Assembly: GCA_044225605.1 (NCBI GenBank)
Contig: JBGAIJ010000005.1
Span: 82,704-146,703, forward strand
Reading direction: 5' to 3'
DNA: 64,000 bases
DNA from: Ferruginibacter sp.
GTDB taxonomy: Bacteria > Bacteroidota > Bacteroidia > Chitinophagales > Chitinophagaceae
Below the pieces are notes generated by a model. The model was not told the DNA's origin. It did no database searches and was given only the letters and a program-made list of their open reading frames with translations. Below are positions 1,529 through 38,875 of this stretch, in pieces; the first letter of the stretch is position 1; each line of letters begins with the position of its first letter. A program made the position numbers and the translations under genes.

Positions 1529-2386
1529 TTATAATTGAGATTGTGTTATCGGTTTAAAGTAAAGTTTGTTGTTGGTGATATTATTTTCAAGCCATGCAAA
1601 CTGCTGGTGCAGCGCCACCACTTTTCCAATTATCACCAAGGTGGGAGAAGCAAACTGCTTGCCCTTAATAGTATCATCGTAGTCATACAAACTGCTGGTG
1701 GTAACTGTTTGCAAAGGCGTTGTGGCCTGTTCAATAACTGCCAGTAGTTTTTCTTCGCTGATATTATTTGCCACCAAATTTGATACAACCGCTTCCAGCG
1801 TATCGCTGCTCATATAAAAAACGAGTGTATCGTTTGTTGCAGCCAGTTCTTTCCAATATGCATCACTTACCACATCTGTTTTGTAATAAGTAAGAAAACG
1901 TACTGAAGTAGTGAAACCTCTTGCCGTAAGCGGAATTCCTGCATAGGCCGATGCGCCCGATGCTGCAGTAATACCCGGAATGATTTCATAAGGGATATTA
2001 TTTTGCACCAGTGTTTCCAACTCATCCAGCACATTGCTGAAGAAAGCAATATCGCCGCCTTTTAAACGAACCACCAGTTTGCCCTGCAAGGCATAATGCG
2101 CCAGCAATTGATTAATGGTTTGCTGCGGCACCGATGCTGCTGCATTGTTTTGTTTGCCTACATAAACAATTTCGGCAGCAGGGTTTGCATGCGCTTTTAA
2201 TATTTCTTCGCTTACTAAACGGTCAGTTAATATAACATCAGCCTGTTGCAAATACTTTACAGCTTTAACTGTAATCAGCTCCGGGTCGCCGCAACCGGCG
2301 CCTGCTAATATTACAGTACCGACAGCCCCTCCTAACCTCCCCCGTGGGGAGGAACTATCACGTTTTATGTTTTCAAATTGTTGCAC
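1529..2386 (-). CDS. cobA: Uroporphyrinogen-III C-methyltransferase (siroheme synthesis)
   Basis: Motifs GAGCGDPELIT, VVRLKGGD, IPGITAASGA and GIPLTARG. GTG start at 2386 is uncertain. Confidence 0.9.
   Translation of the reverse strand: MQQFENIKRDSSSPRGRLGGAVGTVILAGAGCGDPELITVKAVKYLQQADVILTDRLVSEEILKAHANPAAEIVYVGKQNNAAASVPQQTINQLLAHYALQGKLVVRLKGGDIAFFSNVLDELETLVQNNIPYEIIPGITAASGASAYAGIPLTARGFTTSVRFLTYYKTDVVSDAYWKELAATNDTLVFYMSSDTLEAVVSNLVANNISEEKLLAVIEQATTPLQTVTTSSLYDYDDTIKGKQFASPTLVIIGKVVALHQQFAWLENNITNNKLYFKPITQSQL
2322..2356 (+). repeat. REP-like palindromic element inserted in frame in the cobA 5' end
   Basis: cagcccctcctaacctcccccgtggggaggaact is read on the minus strand as SSPRGRLGGA. 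Confidence 0.6.
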
Positions 2387-2580: not shown

Positions 2581-2616
2581 CTTTTCCCTTCCCTCTGGGA
2601 AGGATAGGATGGGCTT
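2581..2616 (-). repeat. GC-rich REP-like element directly after the cysK stop
   Basis: Reverse complement aagcccatcctatccttcccagagggaagggaaaag has the same architecture as the 2322 element, in the opposite orientation. Confidence 0.55.
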
Positions 2617-2617
2617 C

Positions 2618-3529
2618 TTAATACAACCCCTCAATACTCAAATACCTTTCTCCTGTATCATAATTAAACGTCAGCACTTTTGCACCTGCAGGAATTTCTG
2701 CCAGTTTTTTTGCAACCGCTGCTAACGCTGCGCCGGTTGATACACCAACAAAAATGCCTTCTTCTTTTGCAATGCGCTGTGCATAGGAAAATGATTCGTC
2801 TTTACCAACCTGTATAACACCATCTAAAATTTTTGTGTTTAAAATAGATGGCACAAAGCCGGCGCCAAGGCCCTGCAACGGATGTGGTGATGGTGCACCG
2901 CCGCTTAACACCGGCGATAACTCAGGCTCTACCGCCAGCACTTTAAGATTAGGCCATTTTTCTTTTAATACTTCTGCCACGCCGGTGATATGCCCGCCGG
3001 TACCAACACCTGTAATGATATAATCCAACCCTTCCGGAAAATCATTTGCAATTTCCAGTGCAGTTGTTTTACGGTGTATTTCTGTATTGGCAGGATTATC
3101 AAATTGCGAAGGCACCCAACTGTTTGGTGTTTCTTTTGCCAGTTCGTTTGCTTTTTCAATAGCGCCTTTCATACCTTTTTCACGGGGCGTTAATACAAAC
3201 TCTGCACCATACAAACTCATCAGCCTGCGCCTTTCAATACTCATGCTCTCGGGCATTACTAAAATTATTTTGTAACCTTTTACAGCAGCCACCAATGCTA
3301 AACCAATGCCGGTGTTGCCGCTGGTGGGTTCAATAATCACACTGTCTTTTTTTAATAAACCTTTTTGCTCTGCATCTTCAATCATTGATAAAGCAATACG
3401 GTCTTTAATACTGGCACCCGGATTACTTCTTTCCAGTTTAATCCACACGTTGTGATTGTTGCCAAACAAACGGTTAAGTTTTACATGCGGCGTGTTGCCA
3501 ATAGTTTCTAAAATATTATTTGCTTTCAT
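2618..3529 (-). CDS. cysK: Cysteine synthase A
   Basis: PLP lysine motif [28 protein letters not shown] and DTGERYLS. Confidence 0.95.
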
Positions 3530-3539
3530 CTTTACTTAT

Positions 3540-4370
3540 TTAAATAAAATAGTTTAATGGTTCTGTAAACGTTTTTTTATCCTGGATGGTTACACCGGTT
3601 TCGTGGTAAACAATTGAAAATGGTTGTACCGGTTTTGTTAGCCAGACATTTCCACCAATTATACTGTCGTGGCCAACAACTGTTTCTCCACCAAGTATAG
3701 TGGCCCCTGAATAAATCACCACATTATCTTCAATAGTGGGATGGCGCTTTTCACTTGCTTTTTCTTTTAGCACACTTAATGCGCCCAAGGTAACACCCTG
3801 GAATATTTTTACTTTGTTGCCAATTACACTTGTTTCGCCAATTACAATGCCGGTGCCGTGGTCAATGGCAAATGATTCGCCGATTTTTGCACCGGGATGA
3901 ATATCGATACCGGTTTTGCTATGTGCATACTCACTGATAATGCGTGGCAGCAATGTAATTTTTTGAAGGTGCAACTGGTTTGCTATGCGGTGTGCTGCCA
4001 CTGCAAAAAAACCAGGATAAGAAACCAATACTTCATCAATGGTTTTTGCGGCAGGGTCTGCATCAAACAATGATTTAGCATCCAGCAATAATTTTTTGTA
4101 CAATGCAGGAATGCTGTTGAAGAATACAGCAGTTTGTTCAGCGCTTACTTTTTCGCTGTGTAAAACAGGCTCCAGCAATAACTGTAACTGGCGCTCCAGT
4201 TTTTTTAACTGGCTTGCTATTTCAAACTCATTATTGTCAGCTTCATTTTTACAAATGAACAGCACTTCAAATAAACGGCGCACAAAGCGGCGTGCCCTTG
4301 CTGCATCCGGCAAAGAACAGCCCTGCTGCTTTTTAAAATTTACTATGTCTTTATAAAATGCCTGTTCCAT
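3540..4370 (-). CDS. cysE: Serine O-acetyltransferase (EpsC-like)
   Basis: TGIDIHPGAKIG, IDHGTGIVIGET hexapeptide repeats and KRHPTIEDNVVIY. Confidence 0.92.
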   Translation of the reverse strand: MEQAFYKDIVNFKKQQGCSLPDAARARRFVRRLFEVLFICKNEADNNEFEIASQLKKLERQLQLLLEPVLHSEKVSAEQTAVFFNSIPALYKKLLLDAKSLFDADPAAKTIDEVLVSYPGFFAVAAHRIANQLHLQKITLLPRIISEYAHSKTGIDIHPGAKIGESFAIDHGTGIVIGETSVIGNKVKIFQGVTLGALSVLKEKASEKRHPTIEDNVVIYSGATILGGETVVGHDSIIGGNVWLTKPVQPFSIVYHETGVTIQDKKTFTEPLNYFI

Positions 4371-4372
4371 AA

Positions 4373-5614
4373 CTATTGAAATAAAACTGCTGCTACAGTT
4401 GCGTTACTTGTTTCGTCAATTAAAATGGCAGCGCCATTGCTGCGGTTGGCAGCATATGCATCTTTTACCACCGGTGATGCAGTTTTTACCGATGCTTTTA
4501 CAATTTCATTCAGCTTCACCTGTTGCACATCTTCAACATGGTCCAATGTATTTACATCAATTTTGTACGACAGGTTTTTAACCACTGTTTTTACACGGCG
4601 GGTGTTGTGCTGCAAAATATATTTGTTACCGGGCTGCAATGGTTTTTCATCCAGCCAGCACAACAATACTTCTGCTTCATTGGTGGCAGCAATACTGTCT
4701 TCTATTTTAATAATACTGTCGCCGCGGCTTATGTCAATATCATGCTCCAGTAAAATAGTTACGCTTTGTGGTGCAAACGCTTCTGCCACTTCTTTACCGG
4801 CAATTTCAATTTTGTCAATGGTGGTTTCAATACCGGCAGGCAATACTTTTACTTTATCGCCTTTTTTATAAACACCGCTGGTAATTTTTCCGGCGTAGCC
4901 ACGGTAATCATGCAGGTCATCTGTTTGCGGACGAATTACAAACTGCACCTGGAAACGGGCATCTTCATAATTCAGCGCATTATCAATTTGTACTTCTTCT
5001 AAAAATTGTAATAAAGGTTTGCCATCATACCAGGGTGTTTGTGCAGATTTCTCCACAATGTTATCTCCCTTTAATGCACTCAGCGGAATGTAAGTGGCAT
5101 TTTTAATACCGAGTTTTTGCGCCAGCTTGTTGTATTCAATAACAATATTGTTGTACACATCTTCGCTGTAATCCACCAAATCAATTTTATTTATGGCCAC
5201 CACCACTTGAGGTATGCCCAGCAGCGATGCAATAATGCTGTGGCGTTTGGTTTGTTCCACCACGCCATGTCTTGCATCAATTAATACAATGGCTAAATCA
5301 ACATTGCTTGCACCTGTAATCATGTTACGGGTATATTGCACATGGCCGGGAGCATCAGCAATAATAAATTTTCTTTTATCGGTAGTAAAATAGCGGTAGG
5401 CAACATCAATGGTAATGCCCTGTTCTCTTTCTGCACGCAAACCATCCGTCAACAAAGCCAAATCAATTTCACCATTGTCTTTATTCTTGGTGCTTTTTTC
5501 AATAGCTTCCAGTTGGTCCGCCAAAATACTTTTACTGTCGTATAATAAACGTCCAATTAATGTGCTTTTACCATCATCCACACTGCCTGCTGTTATAAAT
5601 CTTAAAATATCCAT
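4373..5614 (-). CDS. cysN: Sulfate adenylyltransferase subunit 1 (GTPase), no APS-kinase domain
   Basis: GSVDDGKSTLIGRLL, REQGITIDVAYRYF, DAPGH and NKID. Confidence 0.95.
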   Translation of the reverse strand: MDILRFITAGSVDDGKSTLIGRLLYDSKSILADQLEAIEKSTKNKDNGEIDLALLTDGLRAEREQGITIDVAYRYFTTDKRKFIIADAPGHVQYTRNMITGASNVDLAIVLIDARHGVVEQTKRHSIIASLLGIPQVVVAINKIDLVDYSEDVYNNIVIEYNKLAQKLGIKNATYIPLSALKGDNIVEKSAQTPWYDGKPLLQFLEEVQIDNALNYEDARFQVQFVIRPQTDDLHDYRGYAGKITSGVYKKGDKVKVLPAGIETTIDKIEIAGKEVAEAFAPQSVTILLEHDIDISRGDSIIKIEDSIAATNEAEVLLCWLDEKPLQPGNKYILQHNTRRVKTVVKNLSYKIDVNTLDHVEDVQQVKLNEIVKASVKTASPVVKDAYAANRSNGAAILIDETSNATVAAVLFQ

Positions 5615-5701: not shown

Positions 5702-6610
5702 CTAAAAATATCCCCCTTTCTTCCTGTCTTCCATTGCAGCTTCGGTTACTTTATCATCAATACGTGTTTCGCCACGTTCGCTGATACGTGTTTGTTTAAT
5801 TTCATTCACTACTTCATCCAGCGTGGCGGCATAACTTTCAACTGCAGCAGTACAAGTCATATCACCCACCGTTCTGTAACGCACCTGCTTTTTTATAATC
5901 ACATCTTCCGCATCAATGCGAATGAAAGGAGAAACAGCAATCAGTTGCCCGTCGTGTTCTATCACTTCCCTTTCATGCGAAAAATAAATTGAAGGCAAAG
6001 GAATTTCTTCTGCACGTATATAACTCCATACATCCAGCTCCGTCCAGTTACTAATGGGGAACACACGAACGTTTTCACCCTTATTAATTTTACCGTTGTA
6101 AATATTCCATAATTCAGGGCGCTGCAGTTTTGGGTCCCACTGGCCAAAATCATCCCTTACAGAAAATATTCTTTCCTTAGCCCTTGCTTTTTCTTCATCA
6201 CGCCTTGCACCGCCAATGCATGCATCAAAACCAAATTCTTCAATAGTATCTAAAAGCGTATGCGTTTGCAGCCAGTTACGGCTGGCAAATTTTCCTTTAG
6301 GTTCCGTTAAGTTTTTCGCTTTAATTGTGTCTTCCACTTTACGCACAATTAAAGTGGCGCCCACTTCATTTGCCAACCAATCTCTGTACGCCAATGCCTC
6401 AGGAAAATTGTGCCCGGTATCAATATGTACCAATGGAAAAGGTATTTTGCCCGGTGCAAATGCTTTCTTCGCTAATTGTACCAGCGTGATCGAATCTTTA
6501 CCACCGCTAAACAGCAATGCCGGTTTTTCAAACTGTGCAGCCACTTCTCTAAAAATGTGAATGCTCTCGGCTTCTAACTGCTCCAAATAATTTAAACTGT
6601 ACTGACTCAT
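5702..6610 (-). CDS. cysD: Sulfate adenylyltransferase subunit 2
   Basis: LFSGGKDS, GGARRDEEKARAKERIFS, RVFPISNWTE and DRKKGGYF. Confidence 0.95.
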   Translation of the reverse strand: MSQYSLNYLEQLEAESIHIFREVAAQFEKPALLFSGGKDSITLVQLAKKAFAPGKIPFPLVHIDTGHNFPEALAYRDWLANEVGATLIVRKVEDTIKAKNLTEPKGKFASRNWLQTHTLLDTIEEFGFDACIGGARRDEEKARAKERIFSVRDDFGQWDPKLQRPELWNIYNGKINKGENVRVFPISNWTELDVWSYIRAEEIPLPSIYFSHEREVIEHDGQLIAVSPFIRIDAEDVIIKKQVRYRTVGDMTCTAAVESYAATLDEVVNEIKQTRISERGETRIDDKVTEAAMEDRKKGGYF

Positions 6611-6639: not shown

Positions 6640-7374
6640 TTAGCTGCTTACTTTAGTTTCTTCATGCACATGCAGGCCACATTCTTTCTTGCTGGCATCT
6701 TCCCACCACCAGCGGCCGGCCCTAAAATCTTCCCCGGGTTTTACTGCTCTTGTACAAGGTGCACAGCCAATGCTTACAAAACCTTTATCGTGTAAAGGGT
6801 TGTAAGGAATATTGTTTTCACGAATGTGCTTAACTACTTCTTCTGTTGTCCAGTGCAGCAGCGGATGGTATTTAATAATATTATTGCTTTCGTCCCATTC
6901 CAGTATAGGTAAATCATGCCTGTCCGGCGAATGTTCTGCTCTTAAACCTGTAACCCAAACAGCATTACCGGCTAAAGCTCTTTTCAACGGCTCCACTTTT
7001 CTAATGTAACAGCATTGCTTCCTGTTTTCAACAGATTCATAAAAAGCATTGGGGCCGTTGGCAACAATAAAATCCTGCAAAGGCTCTGCCTGCGGATAAT
7101 ACGCTTTTACTGATGTATTGTATTTAGCATTGGTGCTGCTCCATACAGCATAGGTTTCTGCAAAAAGCCTTCCGGTATCCAGTGTAAATATTTTTACGGG
7201 CAGGTTGTTATTCAGTATTTCGTGTGTTATCACCTGGTCTTCGTAACTAAAACTGCTGCTGAATGTAACCTGGCCGGGAAACTGTTTTGTAAGCAGCTGA
7301 ACAGCCTCAAAAACATTTAGTCTACTAATTTGGTGGAGTAATTCTGATATAATATTTTGTTTAGCGGCTGACAT
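6640..7374 (-). CDS. cysH: Adenylylsulfate (APS)/PAPS reductase with [4Fe-4S] motif
   Basis: LDTGRLF, CCYIRKV, SIGCAPC, RAGRWWWE and KKECGLH. Confidence 0.93.
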   Translation of the reverse strand: MSAAKQNIISELLHQISRLNVFEAVQLLTKQFPGQVTFSSSFSYEDQVITHEILNNNLPVKIFTLDTGRLFAETYAVWSSTNAKYNTSVKAYYPQAEPLQDFIVANGPNAFYESVENRKQCCYIRKVEPLKRALAGNAVWVTGLRAEHSPDRHDLPILEWDESNNIIKYHPLLHWTTEEVVKHIRENNIPYNPLHDKGFVSIGCAPCTRAVKPGEDFRAGRWWWEDASKKECGLHVHEETKVSS

Positions 7375-7420
7375 TGTTTTTAAAAAGTTTTATGAAAATT
7401 GGTATGGAAACCGGGCTGCA

Positions 7421-7486
7421 TTAACAGCGGAAGATGGTGCACATACAGTGCATACACAGCCCCTTTATGAAGTTGGTTTTACGCAT
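7421..7486 (-). CDS. Putative Cys/Met-rich leader peptide MRKTNFIKGLCMHCMCTIFRC (21 aa)
   Basis: Translated by hand: ATG at 7486, TAA at 7423-7421. Four Cys and three Met. Sits between the promoter and the first cys gene. Confidence 0.65.
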   Translation of the reverse strand: MRKTNFIKGLCMHCMCTIFRC

Positions 7487-7509
7487 ACAAATCAAACGTG
7501 ACTTAATTA

Positions 7510-7538
7510 GTCTATTAAACAGATGGACAAAAATACAG
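7510..7538 (-). promoter_or_regulatory. cys operon promoter (-7 TATTTTTG) with adjacent palindrome GTCTAT-N7-ATGGAC
   Basis: Minus-strand tgtatttttgtcc near 7527-7538 matches the Bacteroidota TAnnTTTG element. The near-perfect inverted hexamer pair 7510-7528 lies just downstream. Confidence 0.5.
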
Positions 7539-7710
7539 TACTTTTTGTGTTTGCCCTAATTTTTTTATGTTAAAAGCAATATTTTCATAACAGTGCGGTA
7601 TAGTTATGCCGCTTTAAACAAGCTTTCAGTCAGTAATAATAATTAAGGCGGCATGATGCGCTGTATAAAATCTTAAACCGATACATCTGGAATTGGCTTA
7701 AAAAAGGGCA

Positions 7711-8967
7711 TCACAGCACCACACCTGCCAGTTCCAGGCTGCGTTTGCTTATTTTCCGGTAATCAATATTCTCAATTACTGCATCGGGGTAGGCAATTAA
7801 TGATACACCATCCTGTTTCCACCATTGTGTGCTGAATAATTTTTTTGCATGTATAACACCTGTAAGCCAGCTAAACTTAAGTTCATTGTGCCATTCTTCA
7901 ATCCACTCAAAAGCACTTTTATCCAGTTTGGTAATATCGTCAGTGCTTACAAATACTTTTAGGTAAAAATCATCGGTTAACTCAGTATCGGTTTGATGAT
8001 GAATTTTTTTATACTCATATTTATAATCGTACCGCAATGCAGAAACATCACTCAATACAGCAGATGCTGTAGGAAATGCACCAGCGCCTTTGCCTTTAAA
8101 GAAGTGTTTATCAGCAAAAGTGCTTTCGGTAGTAATGGCATTAAATTCATTCTTCACATAGTACAAATCATCTGTATTGGCAACAAACTGTGGTAAAAGG
8201 AATACAGCCAGTTTGCCATTCTGCAGTTTTTGAGCATTAGCCACCAGCTTAATGGAATAATTTTTTTCCTTGGCAACTGTAGCATCATTCAGTGTAATAT
8301 TTTCAATACCATTAAAAATAAAACCGTTTGTTTTTGTAACCACGCCAAAAGAATGTGCCAGTATAATGGCTAATTTATTAGCGGCATCAAAACCACCAAT
8401 ATCCAGTTTGGGATTGCTTTCAGCAAAACCCAATTGCTGCGCCAGCAAAAGGGCTTCACTGAATTCGAGTTTTTCATCAAATATTTTAGTTAAAATAAAA
8501 TTAGTGGAACCGTTAATAATACCTCTTATCGATTGCAGCAAATCATTATCATAATATTCTTCCAGGTTACGGATGATGGGCATACTGGCGCAGCAGGAAG
8601 CTTCATACAAAAAAGGTACATTGTACTGTTCCTGCAACTGCAGCAGTTCTTCAAAATGCTCTGCAATCATTTTTTTATTGGCGCTTACCACCGCTTTACC
8701 ATTTTGCAAAGCAGTTTTTACAATAGCAAAAGCGGCATCGGCATCATCAATTACTTCTACAATTACATTAATGTCTTTATCATTTAAAATTACTGCTGCA
8801 TCGGTAGTAAAATTTTCTGCGGCAATGCTGCGCTTTTTATCAGCACTTTTAATGCATATTTTTTTAATAGAAGATTGCAAAGTAGGCGTGCTGTGCAGTA
8901 CATCATATAATCCTTTACCCACCACACCAAAGCCAAACAGGCCGATTGTTAATTGATTTGTTGCCAT
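7711..8967 (-). CDS. hom: Homoserine dehydrogenase
   Basis: GLFGFGVVGKG, VVSANK, YEASCCASMP, GIINGSTNFIL, GFAESNP and GAGAFPTASAV. SAM-I riboswitch upstream. Confidence 0.9.
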   Translation of the reverse strand: MATNQLTIGLFGFGVVGKGLYDVLHSTPTLQSSIKKICIKSADKKRSIAAENFTTDAAVILNDKDINVIVEVIDDADAAFAIVKTALQNGKAVVSANKKMIAEHFEELLQLQEQYNVPFLYEASCCASMPIIRNLEEYYDNDLLQSIRGIINGSTNFILTKIFDEKLEFSEALLLAQQLGFAESNPKLDIGGFDAANKLAIILAHSFGVVTKTNGFIFNGIENITLNDATVAKEKNYSIKLVANAQKLQNGKLAVFLLPQFVANTDDLYYVKNEFNAITTESTFADKHFFKGKGAGAFPTASAVLSDVSALRYDYKYEYKKIHHQTDTELTDDFYLKVFVSTDDITKLDKSAFEWIEEWHNELKFSWLTGVIHAKKLFSTQWWKQDGVSLIAYPDAVIENIDYRKISKRSLELAGVVL

Positions 8968-9094: not shown

Positions 9095-9133
9095 AACTAT
9101 GTTGTAACAGTGTTATGCAGCTTTAAAATCTGA

Positions 9134-9263
9134 CTTATCTGTCACGCCGGCGGCGTGATGGAATTGGCACCTTTTCATTTGTCATCCTGAACTTGTCGAA
9201 GGAAAATAAATGATAGGTTGTCAAGGCTTCAACGGGCCATTACCCTCTGCCTTTCTTGATAAG
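9134..9263 (-). ncRNA. SAM-I riboswitch aptamer
   Basis: Minus strand cttatcaagaaaggcagagggtaatggcccgttgaagccttgacaacct...aaggtgccaattcc...gataag matches the SAM-I consensus, upstream of a methionine-pathway gene. Confidence 0.92.
9181..9202 (+). repeat. REP-like element gtcatcctgaacttgtcgaagg inside riboswitch P3
   Basis: Close match to tgtcagcctgagcttgccgaagg (41291) and the inverted copy at 41353. Confidence 0.65.
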
Positions 9264-9282
9264 ATTAACTAAAGAACTGGCG

Positions 9283-32334: not shown

Positions 32335-33006
32335 TTACCCGTTGGCTTTAAACTCTTTAATATAAAAAGGGTCGGTATAAGCCAGGTTAGCAAAGCTTTT
32401 GTTGCTGTAATACTGGTAAGATAATGCAGCAAACGCCACTGGTAATTGTTCCAGTTGAAGAAATAATGCGTTTGCATTATTTATAACAGGTTTCCATTTT
32501 GCTGCACCATTGCCTGTAAATAAAAGTGTATTGTGTTGCAAATAACCGGCAAAAGAATTCTCGTCAAGTATTAACGCACAAGGCGGCATCACTTCTTGTA
32601 AAGCAATATTATAAACTGCTGTAAACACTTCCATTCTTCTTGCATCAATCATGGGGCAGTACAAAATATTTTCGTCACTCATTTGCAGGGTGGCAGCTTT
32701 AGCCATTACTGCCAATGTATTAACAGCAATAAAAGGTTTATTAAGTGCATAGCAAATTCCTTTTGCACTTGCCATGCCAACACGAATGCCTGTATAAGAA
32801 CCCGGTCCGGCAGTTACAGCAACAGCTTTTATATCAGCAAAATTCAGCCCTGTATCCTTTAGCGCCTGTTCTATTGCAGGCTGCACAAATGCAGCATGGT
32901 CTTTTTGTACTTCGTTTACCAGTTTGTACAGCAATGTTCCGTTTGCAGCAATGGATATATGTGCTGTTTCTGTAGCTGTATCAATATTTAAAATATAGTT
33001 CATCAT
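32335..33006 (-). CDS. tsaB: tRNA threonylcarbamoyladenosine biosynthesis protein
   Basis: ILNIDTAT, AGPGSYTGIRVG and DARRMEVF. Confidence 0.93.
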   Translation of the reverse strand: MMNYILNIDTATETAHISIAANGTLLYKLVNEVQKDHAAFVQPAIEQALKDTGLNFADIKAVAVTAGPGSYTGIRVGMASAKGICYALNKPFIAVNTLAVMAKAATLQMSDENILYCPMIDARRMEVFTAVYNIALQEVMPPCALILDENSFAGYLQHNTLLFTGNGAAKWKPVINNANALFLQLEQLPVAFAALSYQYYSNKSFANLAYTDPFYIKEFKANG

Positions 33007-38754: not shown

Positions 38755-38875
38755 TTGTTATGTAAACCCCGGCAGTTTTGCAAAAGCAGTTTTATTATTT
38801 GCAAAGATGAAACAGAGTTATGTTAATTAAATGTTGTTGCAAAGCAGTTTTATGCCTTTAGTTTTCAGCTTTGCG

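Follow-up and report, generated by a model that had tools for sequence, protein, structure and literature searches.

What controls the sulfate-assimilation operon of a Ferruginibacter species, in a phylum where the regulation of this pathway is poorly known and which, to our knowledge, lacks the CysB paradigm? The sequence studied here is a 64,000-nucleotide (nt) stretch of contig JBGAIJ010000005.1 of Ferruginibacter sp. (referred to as the window, and numbered from its first letter). On its minus strand, a 336-nt gap (7375-7710) separates a homoserine dehydrogenase gene (hom) from seven co-directional genes in the order cysH-D-N-E-K-cobA-cysJ, with cysH first. The original prediction, made from the sequence alone, placed in this gap a leader peptide rich in cysteine (Cys) and methionine (Met), encoded by a 66-nt open reading frame (ORF) between the promoter and cysH, and proposed that ribosome stalling at its codons controls the operon. 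The ORF is indeed present downstream of a Bacteroidota-type -7 box, and its last 11 residues hold all four Cys and two of the three Met, as had been described (coordinates in Table 1). This 66-nt gene is one that annotation pipelines miss, and we used comparison with related loci to assess whether this upstream ORF (uORF) acts as a sensor and through which output. The comparison supports well a translated leader whose terminal Cys codons would tie ribosome transit to Cys-tRNA.

A cysteine-terminal reading frame ahead of cysH

The original prediction had called for a search of relatives for uORFs before cysH that are enriched in Cys and divergent in sequence, and such uORFs were found in genomes and metagenomes alike. 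We collected 80 genomic loci encoding close CysH relatives, 79 of which were scored, and 80 metagenomic loci, of which 78 were scored, and asked for an ATG-initiated ORF of 10-60 amino acids with at least three Cys among its last 10 residues, lying at most 250 nt upstream of cysH. Such a uORF occurred at 75% of the genomic loci, compared to 1.3% on the reverse strand and 0.13% in shuffled sequences. In the independent metagenome set it was detected at 60 of 78 loci, with 2 of 78 for the opposite strand. Of the small Cys-terminal ORFs in 770 kb of related loci, 66 lay in the 125-nt slot before cysH and 6 in the remainder. On these comparative counts, a chance origin of the Cys-terminal uORF is excluded.

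The leader peptides diverge almost wholly outside the Cys run, while the frame, length, position and terminal Cys run are kept, as can be seen in the leaders of Niastella populi CCTCC AB 208238 (MFRSSTIKIMYISTCNKYCCCC) and Rufibacter (MVYSSHIKRMRFCCCSSCCCCC). Parasediminibacterium paludis CECT 8010 (L018) and Paraflavitalea sp. CAU 1676 (L027) are further candidate carriers that can be grown in culture, and the loci retrieved with their CysH also included one of Ferruginibacter sp. SUN002 (L314). Among 59 leaders, 47 are 20-23 codons long, 52 have Cys as the final residue and 39 end in CC; the distance from the uORF stop to cysH is 40-85 nt (median 62). Of the leader residues, 22% are Cys, with D, E, A, G, V and W underrepresented. 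To counter the selection of these ORFs on their Cys content, runs of at least three TGY codons (Y, pyrimidine) were located irrespective of frame. In the Cys frame, 60 of the 65 runs had an in-frame ATG 8-25 codons upstream (3 and 1 in the other frames), and a stop codon followed within one codon in 45 of 65 (1 and 9 in the other frames). The start and stop are thus tied to the Cys frame, showing that the TGY run is read as codons, and the uORF is probably translated.

A non-sensory role for the uORF was also considered, in which it encodes a functional Cys-rich micropeptide, or in which the TGY run is a binding site in DNA or RNA, with the operon under the control of a transcription factor. 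Nucleotides 24-63 of the uORF are invariant in Rufibacter and Sabulibacter, synonymous third positions included, indicating a constraint beyond coding in this clade, and a divergent gene for an Rrf2-family regulator stands beside cysH in some relatives that lack the uORF. However, a non-sensory role is difficult to reconcile with the divergence of the peptides outside the Cys run, with a run bound to one frame, with ATG upstream and a stop directly after it, with in-frame ATG and TGY counts that far exceed the out-of-frame counts, and with the near confinement of the run to the slot before cysH. One genome moreover has the Rrf2 gene and the uORF together. We therefore regard a non-sensory uORF as highly improbable.

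The clustering of Met codons that had been noticed in the window holds family-wide and is specific to the frame. Internal Met codons numbered 99 compared to 33.9 +/- 5.4 expected, a threefold excess located beside the Cys positions, and ATG triplets in the leaders were found 99 times in frame versus 8 and 21 times out of frame. This enrichment fits joint sensing of both sulfur amino acids; other possible causes are in-frame alternative starts and, in the window's subfamily, a self-complementary GCAUGC hairpin.

The placement of the promoter is consistent with a transcribed leader. In 82 of 89 leaders, the 60 nt preceding the uORF start codon include a TAnnTTTG box (10% in shuffles), usually at a distance of 20-32 nt from the ATG; the spacer between uORF and cysH has one in just 4 of 89. 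In the window, transcription would start near 7521, a few nucleotides past the box, giving a predicted 5' untranslated region of ~35 nt before the uORF. A transcription start downstream of 7486, which the original prediction had raised as a potential difficulty, is unlikely given these box positions. The canonical -33 TTTG was found in just 19 of 82 leaders. Both the uORF and cysH start codons lie in A/U-rich, G-poor contexts devoid of a Shine-Dalgarno (SD) sequence.

A separate observation concerns the region upstream of the box. A AATTAGGRNARA block lies at 7549-7560 (minus strand), separated by ~15 nt from the downstream -7 box, a location that would suit a -33 element or a regulator site. 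It is found in the same place in four relatives (L001, L002, L096 and L360), and its AATTAGG core is invariant in the window's subfamily.

Taken together, these comparative tests bear out the leader-peptide reading. The recurrence of the same Cys-terminal design across relatives most likely lets stalled ribosomes report cysteine shortage, although the response to cysteine itself is inferred from comparative anatomy.

Possible outputs of a stalled ribosome

If ribosomes stall on the leader, how could this reach cysH? Known riboswitches, T-boxes and curated leaders were rejected because a permissive Rfam scan of 7200-7900 found nothing: the best match had E = 0.58, everything was far below gathering scores, and the sole above-threshold match in the window was an S-adenosylmethionine (SAM) riboswitch ahead of hom. 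The original prediction had also noted the lack of a clear terminator and had set aside classical intrinsic attenuation. Both points were upheld. No hairpin-plus-U terminator was detected in 7200-7900, and a terminator-like site between the Cys run and position +25 of cysH was found in 0 of 89 non-identical leaders, where shuffles would give 2.1. The identical scan does detect the terminator of the neighboring SAM riboswitch. Classical intrinsic attenuation is thereby excluded family-wide.

The same Cys sensor could have a translational output, as in erm and cat leaders and the mycobacterial leader Ms5788A. RNA structure at the 3' end of the uORF would limit initiation on cysH until a stalled ribosome removed it, and Rho would be secondary, as at toiL/topAI. 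This mechanism has been shown in mycobacteria, and initiation in Bacteroidota is described as needing unstructured, A-rich start regions (PMC6847099). However, duplexes predicted to join the 3' end of the uORF to the start region of cysH were no better than in shuffles across the family (mean z 0.09). When a ribosome footprint was imposed on the Cys run in a constrained partition function, the predicted opening energy of the start region fell by 0.55 kcal/mol compared to 0.17-0.30 in controls, which was not significant; in the window the gain was 0.94 versus 0.73. Six leaders (L046, L055, L069, L077, L093 and L099) did respond in the predictions, the imposed stall reducing the energy needed to open the cysH start by 2.8-6.3 kcal/mol. 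The G-poor spacer and start region have little to pair with, and the consensus fold of the MKSFF...GCC subfamily was weak and free of covariation. Since the duplex and partition-function tests were non-significant family-wide, start-codon sequestration was rejected as a general mechanism and would apply to a few leaders only.

The structural signal that does speak for a translational output is a hairpin around the stop codon (P1), in which the Cys run and stop pair with the next ~32 nt. Family-wide, this pairing went beyond shuffles (z -0.59, p 2e-5) while three positional controls were flat, and it persisted after de-replication to 62 clusters (z -0.48, p about 0.001). In the window's subfamily the CCG:CGG pairs of P1 are invariant in 7 of 7 members. 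In Rufibacter, replacement of the final TGC codon by CTC or TTC is accompanied by matching changes in the 3' arm, a compensation at two pairs; 94.5% of cells are paired compared to 20-62% in slid controls, and the covariation score was reached by 1 of 500 shuffles. P1 nevertheless does not reach the sequence around the cysH start codon. Its role may lie in pausing or timing, or else it may speak for the translational output, which on the whole we consider unlikely.

The original prediction had drawn attention to another helix, formed by GGGCTG within the ORF (7462-7457) and CAGCCC just after the stop (7418-7413). The complementarity is there, and the helix is kept in 6 of 7 close relatives with shifted registers (GGCUUU:AAAGCC in L002, CCGGCU:AGCCGG in L360). 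It is, however, lost in L096, restricted to this subfamily, and less well conserved than the local P1 hairpin (7430-7424 with 7419-7411). The GGGCUG:CAGCCC helix is an alternative to P1 because both need the same 3' segment. In the window the two thus compete for 7411-7419, and neither is a terminator. A further hairpin inside the Cys/Met cluster is weakly indicated by single-sequence folds and by a subfamily consensus fold with one-sided changes only. The structure of the whole leader is weak in the family (mean z -0.36).

A different signal came from nucleotide composition. Family spacers have a C content of 0.24 and a G content of 0.10. C exceeds G in 100% of spacers compared to 60% of other 5' regions, and the C/G ratio is at least 2 in 72% of spacers compared to 26% of other 5' regions from the same genomes (p 6.5e-17). 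The C>G zone extends over ~120 nt, from about -60 to +60 around the cysH ATG, and so runs from the uORF stop into cysH. It is linked to the uORF, with a C-G difference of 0.147 at loci that have one (n=83) versus 0.042 at loci without (n=40; p 1e-7). A conserved spacer motif was sought by k-mer enrichment and rejected, the signals (CCGGT, TTTCCC) being weak and partly a matter of relatedness.

This zone also bears on a third possible output, mRNA stability. Erythromycin-stalled ribosomes stabilize ermC mRNA, and ribosomes stalled or queued on the uORF, 15-35 nt from the 5' end, could similarly shield the transcript from 5'-end-dependent decay. Such protection needs neither a terminator nor start-codon sequestration. 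It would suit the short, fixed distance from promoter box to uORF and the conserved uORF length of 60-70 nt, which might correspond to about two ribosome footprints. It leaves the uORF-linked C>G zone and P1 unexplained, however, and we think it quite improbable.

Arguing by elimination, and with composition data that favor Rho, which the original prediction had suggested with a hedge, we prefer relief of Rho-dependent premature termination. The leader would then be a ribosome-mediated attenuator that senses charged tRNA-Cys, probably Met-tRNA too, a proposal to which we give about even chances. Transcription would start just past the TAttTTTG box, and a ribosome would read the 21-codon leader while RNA polymerase crosses the 46-nt spacer and enters cysH. 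With ample cysteine, the ribosome would pass the terminal Cys codons, terminate at UAA and depart. The vacated leader, the C-rich and G-poor spacer and the first cysH codons would together expose >100 nt of bare RNA, on which Rho could load and halt transcription early in cysH. When Cys-tRNA is scarce, the ribosome would stall at the terminal Cys codons with followers queuing behind it, melt the stop-codon hairpin and cover the leader to ~10 nt past the stop. Bare RNA would then be limited to the 40-85-nt spacer up to the ribosome initiating on cysH, which would be too short for Rho, so that the operon is transcribed.

A more specific form of this proposal, advanced tentatively and with more doubt than confidence, is that the SD-less Chitinophagaceae and Rufibacter evolved their own cysteine (perhaps methionine) leader, in which ribosomes queued along the 20-23 codons of the uORF would measure length like a ruler and deny Rho bare C-rich RNA, with no terminator and no sequestration of a ribosome-binding site. 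Both the ruler logic and the involvement of Rho are inferred.

Several observations weigh against Rho-dependent attenuation. First, the window leader is a weak variant, its four Cys codons being scattered (CMHCMC...RC) and none consecutive. Second, the spacer, at 40-85 nt, falls far below the length known from Rho-dependent leaders, for example about 220 nt in tna. Third, C-rich, G-poor composition is a weak predictor of Rho loading, and the C richness could partly reflect the C/A-rich 3' arm of P1. Fourth, the conservation of P1 is unexplained by a Rho model. Lastly, about a quarter of the relatives' cysH loci have no uORF, and in five uORF-less loci of Chitinophagaceae type a divergent Rrf2-family regulator gene (PF02082) lies 240-380 nt upstream of cysH.

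Phylogenetic range and genomic setting

The nearest CysH proteins are those of Ferruginibacter-like Chitinophagaceae, and this type of CysH was retrieved just from Chitinophagaceae, Rufibacter/Sabulibacter, Saprospiraceae and Weeksellaceae; the retrieved CysH loci included no Flavobacterium proper. The element was found in most Chitinophagaceae and in 11 of 11 Rufibacter/Sabulibacter genomes sampled, and the Cys-terminal uORF was absent from the 6 Saprospiraceae and 33 Weeksellaceae sampled. In the Weeksellaceae (L281-L311, L318 and L336), cysH is fourth or later in a co-directional cluster, a gene for a DAO-family FAD (flavin adenine dinucleotide) oxidoreductase lies 85-94 nt upstream of it, and the 3.5 kb upstream of cysH hold no Cys-terminal uORF. 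As judged from these loci, the element is confined to Chitinophagaceae and the Rufibacter/Sabulibacter clade and is not a feature of Bacteroidota at large.

Rufibacter belongs to the Cytophagales, yet its CysH is closest to that of Chitinophagaceae (~68-71% identity; L081-L090 and L154), its leader peptide resembles Chitinophagaceae leaders, and no other Hymenobacteraceae were among the CysH matches. The operon and its leader may have reached Rufibacter by horizontal transfer. At the uORF-less loci with Rrf2 genes, the presence of these genes indicates that protein-based control exists in the lineage, and a transcription factor may have replaced the leader there. With five loci that have Rrf2 and no uORF, and one genome (L025, on the same contig as L109) that carries both, strict mutual exclusivity was rejected; the pattern is suggestive and no rule.

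Table 1. Coordinates of the leader, its RNA features and the neighboring genes, in window numbering; Rrf2 genes are numbered within their own loci
Feature	Position	Strand	Remarks
Leader ORF	7421-7486 (ATG 7486-7484, TAA 7423-7421)	-	21 codons plus stop, 66 nt; MRKTNFIKGLCMHCMCTIFRC
Cys codons	7456-7454, 7447-7445, 7441-7439, 7426-7424	-	Putative sensor cluster 7424-7456
Met codons in sensor cluster	7453-7451, 7444-7442	-	Read from sequence
-7 box, Bacteroidota type, TAttTTTG	7535-7528	-	Read by eye; ends 41 nt before the uORF ATG
Spacer, uORF stop to cysH ATG	7375-7420	-	46 nt; C-rich and G-poor, then A-rich and SD-less at the start codon; candidate Rho-loading zone
P1-type stop-codon hairpin	7411-7430	-	CCGCUGU (7430-7424, last Arg-Cys codons) with GCAGCCCGG (7419-7411); UAA in loop
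GGGCUG helix, 5' arm	7457-7462	-	Partner CAGCCC 7418-7413
Possible internal hairpin in Cys/Met cluster	7438-7458	-	UGUGUAUGC (7458-7450) with GUAUGUGCA (7446-7438); best window version UGCAC...GUGCA
cysH (3'-phosphoadenylylsulfate/adenylylsulfate (PAPS/APS) reductase)	6640-7374	-	Pfam PF01507, E 5e-44; first structural gene under the leader
cysD	5702-6610	-	Pfam, ORF list
cysN	4373-5614	-	Pfam, ORF list
cysE	3540-4370	-	Pfam, ORF list
cysK	2618-3529	-	Pfam, ORF list
cobA (uroporphyrinogen-III methyltransferase)	1529-2386	-	Pfam, ORF list
CysJ-like gene	Past window start	-	Partial ORF of at least 499 amino acids; last of the seven genes
hom (homoserine dehydrogenase)	7711-8967	-	
SAM-I riboswitch	9132-9265	-	RF00162, 73.8 bits; ahead of hom
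Riboswitch terminator	9094-9066	-	Canonical; 12-bp stem and U-tract
Rrf2 genes of uORF-less relatives	L031:2346-2759, L048:2289-2699, L062:2348-2758, L037:2260-2724, L102	- (first four)	Cys cluster of type C-x-C-x-x-C

The two neighboring sulfur-amino-acid units of the window differ in their RNA device: a SAM riboswitch serves the Met branch at hom, and the Cys leader serves assimilation. The enzymes CysH, CysD, CysN, CysE, CysK and Hom contain 0.5% Met and 0.7% Cys (start codon excluded), and CysH has no internal Met. Sulfur-assimilation enzymes are known to economize on sulfur, and the low values of these six fit such an economy, in contrast to the family leaders with 22% Cys and 6% Met.

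Further Cys-terminal uORFs that might extend a regulon were sought in the 64-kb window and rejected, as the other candidates all lay within coding ORFs or beside unrelated genes (32896-32991 inside a gene; 38820-38861 between ruvC and a histidine kinase gene). A pattern scan of genome contigs for a promoter-ATG-polyCys-stop arrangement was set aside too, its matches being mostly chance or out-of-frame runs within genes such as mnmG.

Two side observations concern the operon itself. In three relatives (L050:3594-3704, L055:3648-3704 and L061:3594-3704), a second small ORF ending in ...CC and a stop overlaps the 3' end of cysH in another frame and terminates shortly ahead of cysD. This ORF probably arises as a side effect of the conserved WWWEDASKKECGLH coding sequence. 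In the window, a perfect hairpin, CCTTCCC-AGA-GGGAAGG, lies at 2587-2603 (minus strand), 15 nt past the cysK stop and within the 231 nt that separate cysK from cobA. Purines rather than a U-tract follow this hairpin, and it may be a processing site, a stabilizer or a partial terminator inside the operon.

Relation to known leader peptides

We found no description of a cysteine leader in Bacteroidota in a full-text literature search whose coverage was incomplete, so that absence is unproven. To this extent the original prediction, which knew of none for this operon in the phylum, stands; it had missed the Cys-run leaders of Actinobacteria and Rhodobacterales. For Actinobacteria, Cys-run leaders lacking obvious terminators have been predicted ahead of cys operons, with Rho proposed to act on them as it does in tna (PMC1262725). 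Mycobacterial polycysteine leaderless small ORFs have been shown to be cysteine-responsive translational attenuators (Ms5788A, the 'Cys ribulon'; Canestrari et al., 10.1101/834739). In Rhodobacterales, the uORFC-8-2 motif combines a Cys-codon uORF with an intrinsic terminator before cysS (Brewer et al. 2021, PMC8632094), and at toiL/topAI, uORF stalling has been linked to Rho (PMC12121999).

The element described here shares with the mycobacterial and actinobacterial leaders a short ORF with Cys codons near its stop, a position upstream of cysteine or sulfur genes, the lack of an obvious intrinsic terminator, an unimportant peptide sequence, and Cys-tRNA sensing by stalling, proposed or shown. 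At least two consecutive Cys codons, a feature of the mycobacterial small ORFs, occur in most of the relatives (the leaders ending in CC) and not in the window itself. It differs from them in belonging to another phylum, with a clearly independent origin, and in not being leaderless, the promoter box lying 20-41 nt before the ATG (the transcription start being predicted). Its length is fixed at 20-23 codons with Cys usually last, it has a C-rich, G-poor zone, and in-frame Met is co-enriched. Predicted unmasking of the ribosome-binding region, seen in a few single leaders, is non-significant family-wide, and initiation in Bacteroidota, being SD-less, offers no Shine-Dalgarno sequence that could be sequestered.

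In tnaC-tnaA of Escherichia coli and in toiL-topAI, as would be the case here, the ribosome is detained at the end of a uORF or close to it, an intrinsic terminator is lacking, and C-rich RNA follows directly after the stop (here judged by composition only), with relief of premature termination as the predicted result. In tnaC, however, free tryptophan is detected by way of a conserved nascent peptide, with the ribosome stalling at the stop codon, whereas here the peptide is unconserved and the stall would occur at Cys codons short of charged tRNA. The toiL mechanism involves a structure that covers the ribosome-binding site, and such a structure is not supported here. The trpL, hisL, leuL, thrL, pheL and ilvL leaders resemble the element in being short ORFs, rich in codons for the product of the pathway, between the promoter and the first biosynthetic gene, and in a small hairpin overlapping the regulatory codons. 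Unlike those classical attenuators, the leaders studied here have neither a terminator hairpin with U-tract (0 of 89) nor a conserved terminator/antiterminator pair, and their structure is weak. Finally, uORFC-8-2 likewise has tandem Cys codons in the stem of a uORF, read as Cys-tRNA sensing, but it controls a cysteinyl-tRNA synthetase in Alphaproteobacteria, and its two conserved stems are accompanied by a final run of U of the kind seen in intrinsic terminators. The element fails the defining features of each class compared, having no terminator, no leaderless start, no SD to sequester and no conserved arrest peptide, and we therefore file it as a variant of the amino-acid-sensing leader peptide.

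Cys-tRNA-sensing uORFs would have arisen independently in at least three phyla. If the length-ruler reading is true, this leader would represent an architecture of its own within ribosome-mediated attenuation, as well as the first such amino-acid leader described in the phylum. The element could provide a compact cysteine-responsive part for engineering Bacteroidota. It poses a mechanistic puzzle, namely how a stalled ribosome could activate a downstream gene that has neither an SD to uncover nor a terminator hairpin whose formation could be blocked. The uORF offers a concrete candidate for the cis-regulator of sulfate assimilation in a large group of bacteria from soil and fresh water.

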